Part shown: positions 8,153-50,191 of the stretch, in pieces
How the letters are laid out: every line of letters starts with the position of its first letter
How positions within the stretch are numbered: position 1 is the stretch's first letter
Assembly (NCBI GenBank): GCA_031459615.1
Contig: JAVKIE010000012.1
Coordinates: 1,405-65,404, forward strand
Reading direction: 5' to 3'
From: Candidatus Calidihabitans tengchongensis
GTDB taxonomy: Bacteria > Sysuimicrobiota > Sysuimicrobiia > Sysuimicrobiales > Kaftiobacteriaceae
DNA: 64,000 nucleotides
Position numbers and translations under genes: made by a program
The notes under the pieces: model-generated
What the model was told of the DNA's origin: nothing
Databases searched by the model: none
What the model saw: only the letters and a program-made list of their open reading frames with translations

Positions 8153-8245
8153 GAAACGTTGGAACGTTCAAACGTTGGAACGTTGAAACGTTGGATCGTT
8201 GGAACATCGTGGCTGACGTTTCAACGCTTCAACGGTTCAACGGTC
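8153..8245. repeat. 8-bp periodic AACGTT array with an inverted arm, between the small ORF and glyQ
   Basis: Perfect AACGTT at 8155, 8163, 8171, 8179 and 8187 (exact 8-bp spacing), then ATCGTT at 8195. An inverted arm GACGTT-TCAACGCT-TCAACGGT-TCAACGGT lies at 8215-8245. Locally much lower GC than the flanks. Confidence 0.85.
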
Positions 8246-11982: not shown

Positions 11983-12033
11983 CTTCTTCCTGCCCTCCCC
12001 GCCTCTTCCCTCTTCCTTCTTCCCTCTTCCCTA
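11983..12033 (-). repeat. polypurine (GGGAARA)n tract starting at the era stop codon
   Basis: The minus strand reads TAGGGAAGAGGGAAGAAGGAAGAGGGAAGAGGCGGGGAGGGCAGGAAGAAG. Confidence 0.85.
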
Positions 12034-13035
12034 CTGCGGATACAGCCGCCTCACCACGGCGTCCTGGTCGCGCCAGCGCGGGGTCGTCTTGACCCACAGG
12101 TCCAGGTACACCCGGCGGCCCAGCAGCGCCTCGATCTCCTGCCGCGCCCTCCGGCCGACCTCCCGCAGCATGCGCCCGTCCCGGCCGATGAGGATCTTCT
12201 TGTGGGACTCCCGCTCCACGTGCAGGGTGGCCCGGATGTAGACCACGTCCGTCCCCTCCCGGGGGGCGAACTCCTCGATCTCGACGGCGATGCTGTGGGG
12301 GACCTCCTCCCGGGTCAGGTGGATGGCGGCCTCCCGGATGAGCTCCCGGGCCAGGAACTGCTCGGGCTGGTCGGTCACCATGTCCGGGGGGTAGTACGGC
12401 GGCCCCACCGGCAGCAGGCCCACCAGGGTCTCCACCAGCCGGTCCAGGCCGGCGCCGGTCAGGGCGGAGACCGGCAGGACCGCTGTCCACGTCCCCAGGC
12501 CGGCGACCCGGTCCTGGACGGCGGCCAGGCCGGCCGGATCGGTCCGGTCCACCTTGTTGAGGACCGCCACCACCGGCGCCGCCTGGGCCCGCAGCCGGGC
12601 GGCCACCTCCTCGTCCTCTGCGGTCACGCCCTCGGAGGCGTCCACCACCCACGCCACCGCGTCGGCGTCGGCCACCGCCCGGACGGCGGTCTCGACCATC
12701 CACTGCCCCAGCCGGTGCCGGGGCTGGTGCAGTCCGGGGGTGTCGACGAAGACCAGCTGGGCGTGCGGGAGGGTCAGGATGGCGGCGAGGCGGCTGCGGG
12801 TGGTCTGGGGGACCGGGGCGGTGATGGCCACCTTGTGCCCCACCAATCGGTTGACCAGCGTGGACTTGCCCACGTTGGGGCGGCCCACCACGGCCACGAA
12901 GCCCGAGCGGTGGTCGGGGGGCGGGGAACTGCCGGGAGCCGGAATCGGGAATCGGGGATCCGAGTGCCGGGATCCGGGGTCCGGAAGGACGTCCCTCCCC
13001 CTTTCACCCTCCAGCCTCCGACCTTCAACCTTCAC
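12031..13035 (-). CDS. era: GTPase Era
   Basis: GFVAVVGRPNVGKSTLVN (G1), DTPG (G3), NKVD (G4), and a C-terminal KH domain (HVERESHKKILIGRDGRMLREVG). The only in-frame start before the G1 motif is the GTG at 13033-13035, overlapping the cdd stop as GTGA. This gives a repeat-encoded extension of about 45 aa. Confidence 0.85.
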   Translation of the reverse strand: MKVEGRRLEGERGRDVLPDPGSRHSDPRFPIPAPGSSPPPDHRSGFVAVVGRPNVGKSTLVNRLVGHKVAITAPVPQTTRSRLAAILTLPHAQLVFVDTPGLHQPRHRLGQWMVETAVRAVADADAVAWVVDASEGVTAEDEEVAARLRAQAAPVVAVLNKVDRTDPAGLAAVQDRVAGLGTWTAVLPVSALTGAGLDRLVETLVGLLPVGPPYYPPDMVTDQPEQFLARELIREAAIHLTREEVPHSIAVEIEEFAPREGTDVVYIRATLHVERESHKKILIGRDGRMLREVGRRARQEIEALLGRRVYLDLWVKTTPRWRDQDAVVRRLYPQ

Positions 13036-14121: not shown

Positions 14122-15402
14122 TCACGGCCGCAGGGGGCCCGCCGGCACCTTGCGGGTGATCCGGACGCGGGCGATCCGGTGGCCCTCCAGCTTCTCGACC
14201 ACGATCTCCACGTCGCCGACGGTCACCGTCTCCCCCTGCTGGGGGACGTGACCCAGCAGCGCGAAGACGAATCCGCCCACCGTGTCCACCTCGCCAGTGG
14301 GCAGGTGCAGCCCCATCAGCTCGTTGACCTCTTCCAGGCTCATGCGCCCGTCCACCAGGGCGGTGTGGGCGTCCACCTGCTCGAACAGCTTCTCCTCCAC
14401 GTCGTACTCGTCCAGGATCGGCCCCACGATCTCCTCGAGCAGGTCTTCCACCGTCACCAGGCCGGCCGTGCCGCCGTACTCGTCCACCACGATGGCCATG
14501 TGGGTCCGCCGGCGGCGCATCTCCCGGAACAGGTCGTCCAGCCGCTTGCTCTCGGGCACGAAGAACGCCGGCCGCATGACCTCCCGCACCGGGAGGGCGT
14601 TGTGGCCGGCCCGGATGTGGCTGAGCAGGTCTTTGACGTGCACCACCCCGACGATCTGGTCGATGGTCTCGCGGTAAACCGGGATGCGGGAGTGCCCTTC
14701 CTCGATGACGACCCGCAGCACGCCCTCCAGGGGCGTGGTGTCCTCCACGCACACCATGTCGATGCGCGGGACCATCACCTCCCGGACCACCTTGTCCCCG
14801 AACTCGAAGATGGAGTGGATCATCTGACGCTCGTCCTTTTCGATGACCCCCTCCTCTTCGCCGAGCTTCAGCAGCAGCCGGATCTCCTCTTCCGTCACCA
14901 GGGGCGAGGTCAGGTCCACCCGCCCGCCCAGGGGGCGCACCAGCAGGTTGCTCGCCACCGACAGGACCCGGATCACCGGGGCCAGCAGCGCGGTCAGCGC
15001 CGCCACCGGGCGGCTGACCCACAGGCTCAGCCGGTCGGCGTGCTTGGCGGCAAACGTCTTGGGGGTGATCTCGCTGACGATGAGCAGGACCACCGACATC
15101 ACCGCCACAGCCGCCCACGGGCCGCGGCGGATCCCCAGCAGGTCCACGAACAGGCTCGCGGCCAGGACCGAGGCGGCGATGTTGACCAGGTTGTTGCCCA
15201 CCAGCAGGGCCGTCAGCACCCGCCCGGGATCCTCCAGCAGACGCAGCACGCGGGCAGCGCGGGGATCACCCGCATCGCGCTGCTGGCGCAGCCTCAACCG
15301 GTTGGCGGCCAGGAGGGCAGTTTCGGATCCCGAGAAGAACGCCGACAGAATCAATAAGGCAGCCAGCAGAACCCAGCCCCACGGGCTACTCGACGGATCC
15401 AA
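14122..15402 (-). CDS. CNNM/CorC-HlyC family protein (DUF21 + CBS pair + CorC_HlyC domain), putative Mg2+/Co2+ efflux
   Basis: [13 protein letters not shown] (DUF21), a CBS pair ([12 protein letters not shown]...[21 protein letters not shown]) and a C-terminal transporter-associated domain. TTG start at 15400-15402, about 12 nt after AAGGAG. Confidence 0.85.
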
Positions 15403-15443
15403 CGACGGCAGTCACTCCTTTTGACGCGGGCGCGTCGCTACCG

Positions 15444-15452
15444 ATTATACCA
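15444..15452 (-). promoter_or_regulatory. extended -10 promoter (TGgTATAAT) upstream of the CNNM/CorC gene
   Basis: The minus strand reads GGGCGTGGTATAATCGGTAGCGACGCGCCCGCGTCAAAAGGAGTGA. The -35 is weak (GGAACA). Confidence 0.5.
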
Positions 15453-15463
15453 CGCCCTGCAGC

Positions 15464-15517
15464 CCCTGTTCCCTTTTCCCTTCTCCCTTTTCCCTTTTCC
15501 TTTTTCCCTTTTCCCTA
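15464..15517 (-). repeat. polypurine (GGGAAAA)n tract starting at the ABC ATPase stop codon
   Basis: The minus strand reads TAGGGAAAAGGGAAAAAGGAAAAGGGAAAAGGGAGAAGGGAAAAGGGAACAGGGG, with seven G3+ runs separated by 3-5 nt loops apart from one 11-nt spacer. Confidence 0.9.
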
Positions 15518-16300
15518 CTGATGCAGGATCTTCGACAGAAACTGGCGCGTGCGGGGGTGGGTGGGAGCGGTGAAGAAGTGCTCGGGGGGACCCTCTTCCA
15601 CGATGACCCCTTCGTCCATGAAGACCATGCGGTCGGCCACCTCGCGGGCAAACCCCATCTCGTGGGTGACCACGATCATCGTCATGCCGGCGTCCCGCGC
15701 CAGGCCCCGCATCACGTCCAGGACCTCCTGGATCATCTCCGGGTCCAGGGCGGAGGTCGGTTCGTCGAAGAGCATGATCTTGGGCTGCATGGCCAGCGCC
15801 CGGGCGATGGCCACCCGCTGCTGCTGGCCGCCCGACAGCTGGGCGGGATAGGCGTGGGCTTTCTCGGGGATGCCGACCCGCTCCAGCAGCTCCAGGGCGA
15901 TGCGTTCGGCCCGCTCCCGGGGCCACCGGCGGACGACGAGGGGCGCCAGGGTGATGTTCTGCAGGGCCGTGAGGTGGGGGAACAGGTTGAACGACTGGAA
16001 GACCATGCCCACCTCGCTGCGCACGGCGTCGATGTTGCGCACGTCGTCGGTGAGCTCGATGCCGTCCACCACGATCCGTCCCCGCTGGTGGCTCTCCAGC
16101 CGGTTGATGCACCGGATCATGGTGGACTTGCCCGAGCCCGACGGGCCGGCCACCACCACCACCTCGCCCGGCCACACCTGGAGGTTGATCCCCCGCAGGA
16201 CGTGCAGGCGGCCGAACCACTTGTGGACGTCCTCCAGGATGATGATGGGCTCGCCGGTCCGCGGCGGCGGTGTGTGCACCCGGTCCTGGGTCATCGACAT
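15515..16300 (-). CDS. amino-acid ABC transporter ATP-binding protein (AapP/GlnQ-like)
   Basis: Walker [10 protein letters not shown], signature [15 protein letters not shown], Walker [21 protein letters not shown] precedes the ATG. Confidence 0.93.
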
Positions 16301-18416: not shown

Positions 18417-18426
18417 ACCTGGATCC

Positions 18427-18636
18427 GGTAGCGGGCGGGCTCCGGCCTGCTGGAGCCCGCCCGCCTCATCGGCCCCTCACCCTGCCCTCTCCCCACCGGG
18501 GAGAAGGGAACAGGGTAGGCCGCTACCGCGGCCTTGACATGCGGAGCGCTCCGCCTTCGATCGTAACTCCTCCCCCTCACCCTGCCCTCTCCCCACCCGG
18601 GAGAGGGGAATAAGGTAGGCCGCTACCGCGGCCTTT
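18427..18636. repeat. structured inter-cistronic spacer: perfect 13-bp hairpin plus two copies of a REP-like unit of about 63 nt
   Basis: Hairpin gcgggcgggctcc-N8-ggagcccgcccgc at 18431-18464. The unit cccctcaccctgccctctccccaccggggagaagggaacagggtaggccgctaccgcggcctt at 18473-18535 repeats at 18573-18636, exactly 100 nt later. Each unit contains its own CCCTCTCCCC/GGGGAGARGGG hairpin. Confidence 0.85.
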
Positions 18637-25004: not shown

Positions 25005-25019
25005 CTCGATCTGCGCAAT

Positions 25020-26278
<1,259 letters not shown>

Positions 26279-40209: not shown

Positions 40210-40310
40210 CAGTTCGATCTACGCGATCTACACGGTCGCGCAATCGGCGCAACTTACCGGATAGGCCGATATCCGTCAGATCGCGCAGATTGCGCAGATT
40301 GGGTAGATCG
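40210..40310. repeat. second locus of the ATCTGCGCAAT / GATCTAC short-repeat family (thrS-comEC spacer)
   Basis: gatctacgcgatctacac ... gcgcaatcggcgcaac ... cagatcgcgcagattgcgcagattgggtagatcgac. Tandem 9-mers and their inverted copies, with five GATC sites. Confidence 0.75.
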
Positions 40311-43840: not shown

Positions 43841-44383
43841 ATGGAGACGCACGATGCGGCGCTGATCAGGCGCATCCGCCGGCTGGAATGGTGCGTGGCG
43901 GGGTCGGCCGCCCTGTGGGCGCTCATGGCCTGGGGGCTGTGGGCGCGGGCGGCGGGCGCCGCCCCGCCTCCGGTGGTGCGGGCGGCAGCGGTGGAGGTGA
44001 CGGATGCCACCGGGCGGGTGCGTGCGGTCCTCGACGCCGCCGGCCGCCGACCGGCTCTGGTCCTGTACGACGCAGACGGACGCCGCCGGCTGTCCCTGGG
44101 CCTGGGAGTCCAGGGCAACCCCGAGGTGGTCCTGGCCGACGCCCGCGGTCGGCCGCGGCTGCTCCTGCGCGCGGGCTACGAGCGGGCGGCGGAGGTGCAG
44201 CTCGCCGACGGATCCGGGCGTCCCCGGGCGGGCCTGTGGATCACCCACCAGGACGAACCGGGGTTGTGGCTGTTTGACGAGCTGGCCCGACCGCGCATCG
44301 GCCTGAAGGTCCTGGCAGGCGGTGTGCCGCGGCTGTGGCTGTTCGAAGAGTCCACCGGCCGCATCCTCTTCACGGCACCCTGA
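43841..44383 (+). CDS. hypothetical membrane-anchored protein with about 20-aa beta-strand repeats
   Basis: The ATG follows GGGAGGGAG. One N-terminal TM helix (WCVAGSAALWALMAWGLWA), then six copies of a D-x-x-G-R-x-R-x-x-L-like unit (DATGRVRAVL, DADGRRRLSL, DARGRPRLLL, DGSGRPRAGL, DELARPRIGL, EESTGRILF). Divergent from dtd. Confidence 0.55.
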   Translation: METHDAALIRRIRRLEWCVAGSAALWALMAWGLWARAAGAAPPPVVRAAAVEVTDATGRVRAVLDAAGRRPALVLYDADGRRRLSLGLGVQGNPEVVLADARGRPRLLLRAGYERAAEVQLADGSGRPRAGLWITHQDEPGLWLFDELARPRIGLKVLAGGVPRLWLFEESTGRILFTAP

Positions 44384-44399
44384 CGGCCGCGGCGGGGTC

Positions 44400-44445
44400 T
44401 GTTCTCCCCTCTCCCCTCTTCCCTCTTCCCTCTTCCCTTCCCTCA
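44400..44445 (-). repeat. polypurine (GGGAAGA)n tract starting at the GH63-like gene stop codon, at a convergent gene junction
   Basis: The minus strand reads TGAGGGAAGGGAAGAGGGAAGAGGGAAGAGGGGAGAGGGGAGAAC, with six G3+ runs and 2-4 nt loops. Confidence 0.9.
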
Positions 44446-45720
44446 CCCCACCGGCCGCTTCACCAGGTCGAGGACCAGGGCCGCAGTCCAGGTGAACCCG
44501 TCCGCCCCCAGGCCGGCGCCCGTATACGGGTGGAAGTACTCGCGCCACCCGCCCCGGCGGACCAGGTCCACCGTGGCGGCGGCCAGGGCCGCGGCCCGGT
44601 CGCGCAGGCCCAGATCGTCCAGCCCCCGGGCGACCATCCAGTTGACGTTCACCCACACCGGTCCCCGCCAGTACCGGTCGGGCTCGAACCCCGGCTGGTC
44701 GGGCGGCACCGAGGGCACGGGCAGGCAGCCTGCGCAGCGGGCCAGATACCGGTCCAGGAGGGCGGCGGCCCCGGCGGCGTCCACCAGGCCACCGTAGATC
44801 GCCCCGAGCCCGGCCACCGTGTCGGCGGGAATGAGGGCGCCTGAGACCACGTCGAAGTCGGCGAAGATCCCGGACTCCGGCCGCCACAGCGTCCGCCGGT
44901 AGGCATCGGCAAACACGGCCAGGACGTCGGGGGACACCGCCGGCGGGCGGCCCAGGACGGCGGCGATGTGGTTGAGGTCCCGCGCCGCCCGGTACCAGAC
45001 CGCGTTGAACAGCGCGTCGTACACCGCAAACGGCGTGCGGGGGAGCAGCCGGCGCAGGTCGTATCCCGCGTCGGCAATCATCTCCACCAGCGCGTAGTAG
45101 AGGTCGTAATCGCGGTCGGTCGGACGCTGGCGCGCCTCCACCGCCGCCGTGTCCTCCCGGCGGTACGCCCGCGCGGGGCGCAGGCCCCGTCCGACGGCCC
45201 CGTCCCACCGGGGACTGTTGTCCGTCCCGCTCTCCCACGGGTGGATGACGACGATCAGGGGACACCCGCCCGTGGTGCGCCGGTCCAGGTAATACCGCAC
45301 CAGGTCCCGCAGAGGCTCCCACAGCCGCGCCCACCACCGGGGGGCGATGTCGGGCCGCATCTCGCCCACCATCCGCACGGCCGTGGGCAGCACCGGCGGC
45401 TGGGAAATCCCGCTGGTGCGCTCGGAGGGGTGGCGGACCGGGACCCCGGGCCACCAGGAGGGGTCCGGCTGGTAGCCGGCGGGCGCATGGGGCGCGTAGC
45501 GGATGTGGGGCAGGCAGCCGTCGGTCCACTGCCCCCGCAGCAGCGAGTCCACCTCGCGCGCGGCGCGGTCCCAGTCCAGGTGCGCCCACCCGATGGCGGC
45601 AAAGGCGCTGTCCCAGTTCCACTGGTGGGGGTACTGGCGGAGGCTGGGAGCGGTGTACTCCCCCCGGTCGTTGCCGCGCAGGACGGCCTCGGCGGCGGCG
45701 GCCAGGTCCGGTCCGGTCAC
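44443..45720 (-). CDS. GH63-like (alpha/alpha)6 glycoside hydrolase (mannosylglycerate/glucosylglycerate hydrolase-like)
   Basis: YPHQWNWDSAFAAIGW, HPWESGTDNSPRWD and RGPVWVNVNWM resemble the MGH/GgH branch of GH63. GTG at 45720 overlaps the upstream stop as GTGA. The track start at 45789 would overlap the ATPase gene by 73 nt. Confidence 0.75.
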   Translation of the reverse strand: MTGPDLAAAAEAVLRGNDRGEYTAPSLRQYPHQWNWDSAFAAIGWAHLDWDRAAREVDSLLRGQWTDGCLPHIRYAPHAPAGYQPDPSWWPGVPVRHPSERTSGISQPPVLPTAVRMVGEMRPDIAPRWWARLWEPLRDLVRYYLDRRTTGGCPLIVVIHPWESGTDNSPRWDGAVGRGLRPARAYRREDTAAVEARQRPTDRDYDLYYALVEMIADAGYDLRRLLPRTPFAVYDALFNAVWYRAARDLNHIAAVLGRPPAVSPDVLAVFADAYRRTLWRPESGIFADFDVVSGALIPADTVAGLGAIYGGLVDAAGAAALLDRYLARCAGCLPVPSVPPDQPGFEPDRYWRGPVWVNVNWMVARGLDDLGLRDRAAALAAATVDLVRRGGWREYFHPYTGAGLGADGFTWTAALVLDLVKRPVG

Positions 45721-50114: not shown

Positions 50115-50191
50115 TGGTGGGCGGTGCAGGACTTGAACCTGCGACCTCATCCATGTCAAGGATGCGCTCTGGCCACCTGAGCTAACCGCCC
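50115..50191 (-). tRNA. tRNA-Val (anticodon GAC), CCA encoded
   Basis: Hand-folded cloverleaf: GGGCGGT-TA-GCTC-AGGTGGCCA-GAGC-G-CATCC-TTGACAT-GGATG-AGGTC-GCAGG-TTCAAGT-CCTGC-ACCGCCC-A-CCA (77 nt). Confidence 0.9.

Follow-up and report, generated by a model that had tools for sequence, protein, structure and literature searches.

The purine-only repeat that directly adjoins the stop codon of an ABC transporter ATPase gene in the DNA analysed here (a stretch of 64,000 nucleotides, referred to as the window) is not a special element; it exemplifies a general class of tandem arrays, with units of 7-8 nt, in a hot-spring lineage. This repeat, T1, is located at 15463-15517 on the minus strand. The explanation favoured, with modest confidence, is that T1 is a slippage-driven heptamer repeat of the G-rich class which fills an unconstrained slot between a stop codon and a promoter, its purine and G-quadruplex (G4) character being incidental. 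Nothing here shows T1 acting as a G-quadruplex terminator. Stop-adjacent G-rich heptamer repeats are already known (PMC4692102), and the purine-only units of this lineage are an addition to them.

The window has a GC content of 73.2% and its minus strand holds nearly all of the genes, which are arranged in the order 7TMR-HD, ybeY, dgkA, an amino-acid ABC operon, CNNM/CorC, DUF502, cdd, era, MgtE_N-CBS, Nramp, recO and glyQS. Proteins identical to those of the window were identified in several hot-spring MAGs that carry the NCBI label Armatimonadota, and among named relatives Candidatus Segetimicrobium (Ca. Sysuimicrobiota) is the closest, with an Era identity of 65%. The ABC transporter ATPase gene (15515-16300, minus strand; Pfam ABC_tran, 3.9e-38) is the last of an SBP-permease-permease-ATPase amino-acid uptake operon. 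Its TAG stop codon (15517-15515) adjoins T1 and is followed on the minus strand by GGAAAAGGGAAAAAGGAAAAGGGAAAAGGGAGAAGGGAAAAGGGAACAGGGG down to 15463, the purine-only run GGGAAAAGGGAAAAAGGAAAAGGGAAAAGGGAGAAGGGAAAAGGGAACAGGGG being opened by the G of TAG and extending to the same position. This (GGGAARA)n array possesses seven G3+ runs, the first of which takes in the G of TAG, and one 11-nt spacer. TRF analysis showed it to be the strongest short-period repeat of the window (period 7, 15464-15516, 7.6 copies, 89% matches, score 85). Nine bases past the end of T1 is the extended -10 promoter TGgTATAAT (15452-15444, minus strand), which serves the downstream CNNM-CBS-CorC_HlyC transporter gene (14122-15402, minus strand; Pfam, called genes); T1 thus reaches from inside the stop codon to about -35 of this promoter and lies at about -38 to -90 relative to it. 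These details of place, sequence, G-runs, spacer, shared G and promoter had been reported in a first-pass annotation of the window and were all confirmed on the sequence. A promoter-like sequence, TTGACG-16-GATTAT, is also present on the plus strand (15421-15448), from which an antisense transcript would enter the pyrimidine tract of T1 directly; as it lies across the leader hairpin and the conserved promoter of the sense strand, it may be coincidental.

Two other tracts of this kind were identified, both on the minus strand. T2 (11983-12033, core 12002-12032) is a (GGGAAGA)n array that begins in the TAG of era and degenerates towards the MgtE_N/CBS gene, within an intercistronic spacer. T3 (44398-44449) is a (GGGAAGA/GGGGAGA)n array that begins at the TGA of a gene for an MGH1-like glycoside hydrolase and has no downstream promoter or gene; it takes up most of the 59-nt gap before a convergent gene of 180 aa (stop 44381-44383, plus strand), a gene also called in every related assembly. 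T3 forms the 46-nt loop of a GC-rich stem of 8 bp, GGUGGGGU/ACCCCGCC (44443-44460 and 44397-44404). With a period of 7, TRF counted 4.4 copies in T2 and 5.9 in T3, and each of the three arrays carries 6-8 G-runs. Although both tracts exist as had been claimed, their units are similar to those of T1 rather than near-identical. The unit AGGAARA occurs third in both T1 and T2; copying between the two loci was rejected as its origin, given that there are two cases and that the variant is also found in an unrelated Lysobacterales tract (L081), and it is regarded as a common G-to-A change.

T1, T2 and T3 stand out from the rest of the window. A degenerate three-unit pattern (up to 2 mismatches) gave 11 matches, all of them within these tracts and on the minus strand, against a mean of 0.13 in shuffled windows, with none of 100 shuffles reaching 11. 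They are also the only purine or pyrimidine tracts of at least 24 nt at 92% purity in the 64 kb and, among approximately 50 gene 3' ends, the only ones whose first 40 nt past the stop codon are at least 95% purine (next highest, 70%). Each starts at, or within, the stop codon of a gene on the minus strand and is intergenic, with the G-rich strand being the coding strand, which supports the earlier proposal of an element recurring straight after stop codons on the sense strand. Comparison of T1-T3 with Rfam 15 showed no family at gathering score; the sole Rfam match in the window is a tRNA gene (50118-50191, minus strand).

Comparison of orthologous junctions, which the first-pass annotation had asked for, revealed whole-unit polymorphism within the species and turnover between species. 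Seven MAG contigs cover T1 with identical flanks, and in three of these (L003, L005 and L007) the array is shorter by exactly one GGGAGAA unit, while T2 differs between strains by a G/C SNP. In the related species L130 (Era 85% identical), the junction of the ABC and CNNM genes reads TAG-A-(GGGAAAA)3-AAGGAAAA-(GGGGAAA)2. Because the irregular AAGGAAAA unit is common to this array and T1, the array is probably ancestral. L128 (Era 88% identical) lacks T1 and possesses in its place a 28-nt GC-rich spacer with a hairpin of -20.5 kcal/mol. T2 is absent at the orthologous junction of both L128 and L130, and T3 is absent at the orthologous junctions of L131 and L132, relatives that are 86% and 82% identical. 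The arrays are therefore length-polymorphic within species and are gained and lost between species, and where present they lie on the sense strand and adjoin a stop codon. A coding or read-through extension was rejected, since 7 is not a multiple of 3 and relatives that carry the tract have the same protein C-termini as those that lack it. A further purine array, (GGAAAAG)n, is found directly past the thrS stop codon in L131 (15349-15401), a site at which the window genome has none.

The junction at T1 was compared among 80 loci fetched via the CNNM protein. Across more than 20 relatives, with protein identities as low as 57%, the TGnTATAAT promoter and its leader are conserved, the promoter being at a constant distance from the start codon. 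The spacer between the ABC stop codon and this promoter is filled in relatives by (GGGGATA)n and its complement, by (AGGGACCA)n and its complement, by (GGGATCA)n with (GATCCCT)n, by (TATCCCCT)n, by (AATTGTG)n and its complement, by a plain GC hairpin, or by no repeat. Inverted arrays are present at this junction in L135, L137, L143 and L149, and the spacers of four relatives form long hairpins with an MFE of -19 to -47 kcal/mol (z -2.9 to -4.0). T1 hence occupies the slot that in its relatives holds a terminator-type hairpin, often made of two inverted arrays. The T1 spacer itself has an MFE of 0 with no Watson-Crick fold, and the predicted folding of the surrounding 181 nt was not significant (z -0.16). 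A terminator scan found no hairpin with a U-tract at T1, in agreement with the earlier statement that a classical hairpin terminator is missing from this site; the same scan gave no intrinsic (Rho-independent) site at any of T1-T3, which have no U-tract. A REP or palindromic element was not identified at these tracts either, as all three consist of direct repeats only, with no self-complementarity.

Elsewhere in the window, the minus strand carries arrays of other units with periods of 7 or 8. At 1180-1229, 1 nt past a TGA (1234-1232), two GGGATCN heptamer arrays in inverted orientation form a self-complementary hairpin; their unit resembles the GGGNATC repeats known from Xanthomonas and Nostoc. 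At 8155-8244, octamer arrays that are likewise inverted, (CCGTTGAA)n ... (TTCCAACG)n, are located in the spacer between a gene of 86 aa and glyQ, and are longer by two units (16 nt) in MAG contig L001 than in the window. Unlike other arrays, the octamer unit is kept at the same junction in L135 (12096-12127) and L148 (13695-13724), relatives with approximately 67-78% CNNM identity; the region upstream of glyQS matched neither a T-box nor any other Rfam family. Between cdd and era, TRF identified a period-7 array of (GGATCCC/CGATTCC)n (12932-12984), and directly past the cdd stop codon (TGA 13034-13032) lies a (GAAGGTY)n heptamer array (12992-13031), of which a counterpart with 5 units is also present in L128. 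The latter had been taken for a weaker purine run; it is not a purine tract.

In 310 kb of DNA from this lineage, the period is 7 in 12 and 8 in 8 of 30 tandem arrays, and many of the units are unrelated to one another. About 14 of 21 arrays are located within 19 nt past the stop codon of a coding-like ORF regardless of their sequence, two of them being C-rich on the sense strand. In the source metagenome, the bin of DNA contig depth over T1 is about eight times that of its neighbours, which suggests many similar tracts, the direct count being three arrays in 64 kb. Repeated elements of other kinds were observed as well. A duplicated REP-like palindromic element of about 105 nt follows the stop codon of the SBP gene (18417-18634) and consists of a hairpin GGCCGCGGTAGCGGCC, a second hairpin CCCCTCTCCC/GGGGAGAGGG and a G-rich tail CAGGGTGAGGGG matching the G4 consensus; L128 has two copies of the element and L130 has one, and in MAG contig L001 a run of N stands at this place. 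The 9-mer GCGCAGATT occurs in tandem at the stop/start junction of two arginine-pathway genes (25005-25030 and 40277-40301) and recurs in inverted form past the thrS stop codon; it may be a putative regulator binding site.

The association with gene ends extends to other phyla. A scan of collected genome contigs for a four-G-run purine pattern yielded at least 120 loci, with cyanobacteria, Gemmatimonadota, Planctomycetota, Proteobacteria, Bacteroidota and others among the matches listed. For the 97 listed tracts with enough flank, the end of an ORF of at least 100 codons lies within 30 nt 5' of the purine strand in 37, compared with an antisense ORF end at the other side in 9 (p=4e-5), and 15 tracts among the matches listed directly adjoin a stop codon. 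The sense-strand 3'-end bias that had been set as a check is thus present across phyla (37 versus 9), as it is in the window, where all tracts are on the sense strand. Among the listed matches that are solo tracts, 23 are sense and 8 antisense. A complementary pyrimidine tract occurs within 200 nt downstream of 24 of 104 listed purine tracts and upstream of 3, and inverted arrays in this purine-then-pyrimidine order give U-rich sequence on the 3' arm in both directions. In one locus (L053), inverted arrays lie between convergent genes and both stop codons adjoin the purine arms. Several of the cross-phylum tracts precede ordinary terminator hairpins.

The excess of periods 7 and 8, the polymorphism in whole units, the turnover between species and a unit that is not conserved at a conserved junction are all observed here. 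We infer that such an array grows by slipped-strand mispairing and would spread until it meets two selective walls, namely the stop codon and the promoter; the apparent fusion of T1 to its stop codon would be due to expansion up to these walls. The sense-strand purine character could arise if arrays are tolerated or selected in the purine-then-pyrimidine (R-then-Y) order of terminator hairpins, T1 being of the 5'-arm type only. The predicted T1 RNA, with no Watson-Crick structure and no C for Rho loading, would act at most as a weak generic 3' spacer or boundary. Its G-quadruplex potential would be a by-product of whichever unit expanded and not a selected function.

Three observations argue against this explanation by slippage. 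Firstly, T1 and its irregular AAGGAAAA unit are common to species whose Era proteins are 85% identical, a long persistence for a neutral repeat. Secondly, some structure seems to be selected in the slot, since most relatives hold a significantly stable hairpin there, and T1 could fold in no way other than as a G4. Thirdly, the sense bias of solo tracts (23 versus 8) is unexplained by slippage alone.

Possible, if rather unlikely, is that T1 is a hairpin-free 3'-end element whose G-runs, as an RNA, non-template-DNA or hybrid G4, would end or pause transcription or block 3'->5' exonucleases, replacing the hairpin of the relatives. Hairpins are present in the same slot in L128, L135, L137, L143 and L149, T1 has no other terminator, and T1 and T3 each mark the end of an operon, T1 preceding a promoter and T3 lying between convergent genes. 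The persistence of T1 in two species is also in keeping with such a role, as is the finding that transcripts start or stop more often at G4-capable repeats (PMC4692102). Canonical G4 motifs are depleted on both strands of the window (7 and 14 seen, against approximately 19 and 28 expected from first-order Markov simulations), yet they are concentrated in intergenic repeats, which contain 5 of the 14 on the minus strand. Against a G4 role, T1 and T3 fit the (G3+N1-7)x4 consensus but T2 does not, as its 11-nt loop is accompanied by only three further runs. For T1, the G4 predicted at 37 C by ViennaRNA with its G4 term was marginal (-9 to -13 kcal/mol), and none was predicted at 60 or 70 C, temperatures relevant to a hot-spring organism, although the G4 model of this program is crude and high intracellular K+ could shift the outcome. 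In relatives, non-G4 and even C-rich arrays occupy the same site, so the G-quadruplex is not the conserved property at this junction. At the orthologous junctions of T2 and T3 the tract is lost without replacement, and because many such tracts in other phyla precede an ordinary terminator hairpin, the tract itself would not be the terminator there.

RNA evidence consists of low-depth, strandless Logan contigs from four metatranscriptome libraries (X9, X10, X11 and X22). A contig of X10 (15403-15574) spans T1 without a mismatch, starting in the ABC gene and reaching the leader of CNNM, which argues against termination at T1, although DNA carry-over is possible. Contigs of X9 and X22 end at 15415 and 15420, respectively, approximately 20 nt downstream of the expected start of the promoter transcript. 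The depth of the RNA contigs is uniform at about 4-5 and equal to that of neighbouring genes, as DNA carry-over gives, and contigs tend to break at repeats; neither the read-through contig nor the contig ends are decisive. Taken with the promoter conserved in more than 20 relatives, the contig ends favour the proposal that T1 marks an operon boundary. The G4 role suggested for it in the first-pass annotation fared less well, given the deviation of T2 from the consensus, the absence of a predicted G4 at 60-70 C, the depletion of G4 motifs in the window and the RNA contig spanning the tract. A bolder proposal is that solo polypurine G-run arrays are working hairpin-free transcript-end elements (by G4 or by a stable purine-RNA/pyrimidine-DNA hybrid) which do the job of the hairpin of sister species, their copy number tuning read-through into Mg2+/metal-transport genes; this appears quite unlikely.

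Improbable, too, is that T1 represents the orphan half of an array-built hairpin. An ancestral inverted pair in purine-then-pyrimidine order would have formed a (bidirectional) terminator of the intrinsic type, of which the 3' arm was lost while the 5' arm is still slipping. The placement of complementary tracts downstream of the purine tracts listed from other phyla (24 of 104, versus 3 upstream) points in this direction, as do the arrays of L053 between convergent genes and the inverted arrays found at the T1 junction in four relatives and in the window at 1180-1229 and 8155-8244. However, no pyrimidine arm is present on the sense strand near T1-T3, and the window contains no further tract of 24 nt or more. 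The array of L130 is also solo, from which the solo state would be old.

The two strands of the array differ in base composition, and C/U-rich RNA is known to favour Rho loading. A strand-specific Rho logic might follow, in which the C-free sense RNA cannot load Rho and the antisense (CCCUUUU)n is a loading site that insulates against antisense or convergent read-through; at T3, which begins 15-19 nt past the stop codon of the convergent gene, it would be the Rho site of that plus-strand gene. Arrays of other composition fill the same slots, and this account is considered very improbable. Hardly credible is a periodic protein-binding array (for a CsrA-like GGA binder or another multimeric RNA- or DNA-binding protein) or an upstream activating element for the extended -10 promoter: the regular 7-nt GGG/GGA spacing, the position of T1 upstream of the promoter and the binding-array-like proposals made for the TAACTGA repeats of Beggiatoaceae (MacGregor 2015, PMC4679880) would agree with it, but the unit changes among relatives in which the promoter is conserved, neither a promoter nor a gene lies downstream of T3, T2 is inside an intercistronic spacer, and a spacing of 7 bp does not keep in phase with the helical repeat. 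The array of GGA motifs for a CsrA-like protein suggested in the first-pass annotation would in addition need display of GGA in hairpin loops, and purine-only RNA forms no hairpin. For the H-DNA suggested there, inspection showed the mirror symmetry in the (GGGAAAA)nGGG of T1 but not in the (GGGAAGA)n of T2 and T3.

Two other candidates were rejected. Stop codons here often precede a GGGAG/GGGAAGA Shine-Dalgarno (SD) sequence, which could have seeded the arrays, but orthologous junctions without the tract are not tight stop-SD junctions. A metal-sensing leader for the CNNM and MgtE_N genes does not agree with T1 being upstream of the promoter and T3 being without a downstream gene.

If T1 is indeed a slippage-driven repeat, its importance is mainly practical, as a hypervariable marker at which assemblies break (DNA contigs end in T1), and it does not merit annotation as a regulatory RNA. 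Of greater interest than T1 is the wider pattern in this uncultured hot-spring lineage: the terminator slot past stop codons is repeatedly filled by unrelated 7-8-nt arrays, either solo or as inverted pairs that form long hairpins. This provides a natural series for asking how terminator-like hairpins arise and why heptamer repeats of bacteria show a fixed polarity relative to genes, the latter being a question left open by Rehm et al. 2015 (PMC4692102).

Among known systems, intrinsic terminators and REP palindromes resemble T1-T3 in being located directly past stop codons and between convergent genes, and differ in the self-complementarity and U-tract that T1-T3 lack (MFE 0). In mitochondrial CSB II, termination is G4-dependent and the G-rich non-template strand or RNA is proposed to halt the polymerase without a hairpin. 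CSB II is a single long G-run element acting on a phage-type RNA polymerase, in which it differs from T1, and any halting of a bacterial RNA polymerase at T1 is hypothetical. The TAACTGA repeats of Beggiatoaceae are likewise lineage-specific intergenic heptamers with an orientation bias, whereas they are mostly upstream of start codons, contain stop codons in all frames and have no G-runs (PMC4679880). The STRR heptanucleotide repeats of Calothrix PCC 7601, as outlined in PMC4692102, are also lineage-specific and intergenic with a bias in gene orientation, with different units that have no G-runs. Mrazek et al. 2007, as represented in PMC4692102 and PMC4679880, found an excess of heptamers among the long SSRs of large high-GC bacterial genomes and proposed polymerase slippage. 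The dominance of period 7 (and 8) in the 310 kb of lineage DNA and the 73% GC of this genome agree with that excess, and the whole-unit polymorphism is consistent with slippage; the survey, to the extent that it is represented in those two papers, is statistical and silent on placement in a terminator slot and on replacement of arrays at an orthologous junction.

The closest resemblance is to the G-rich heptameric repeats GGGAATC of Xanthomonas and GGGGA(C/T)T of Nostoc described by Rehm et al. 2015 (PMC4692102). Like T1-T3, these consist of 7-nt units in tandem, each with one run of three or four G, and they show a bias to positions near stop codons with the G-rich strand as the coding strand. 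T1-T3 have at least four units each, are intergenic and lie within 50 bp of a stop codon with the G-rich strand as the coding strand; the array of L130 and the thrS tract of L131 share this placement and strand. The published repeats show a strong non-coding bias, some overlap the stop codon, and they are sometimes tandemly inverted and hairpin-capable (PMC4692102). Their length and sequence vary widely between close relatives; T1 likewise differs by one unit in three of seven MAGs and is present or absent between species. Oligonucleotides of the published repeats fold into G4 in vitro, as shown by CD, with no tie to gene function and a role described as unknown (PMC4692102), while any G4 of T1-T3 is a prediction. 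Arrays of the published type prefer four units, compared with the 6-8 G-runs carried by T1-T3, and the units described here differ from them in being purine-only (GGGAAAA/GGGAAGA) and in belonging to an uncultured high-GC hot-spring bacterium.
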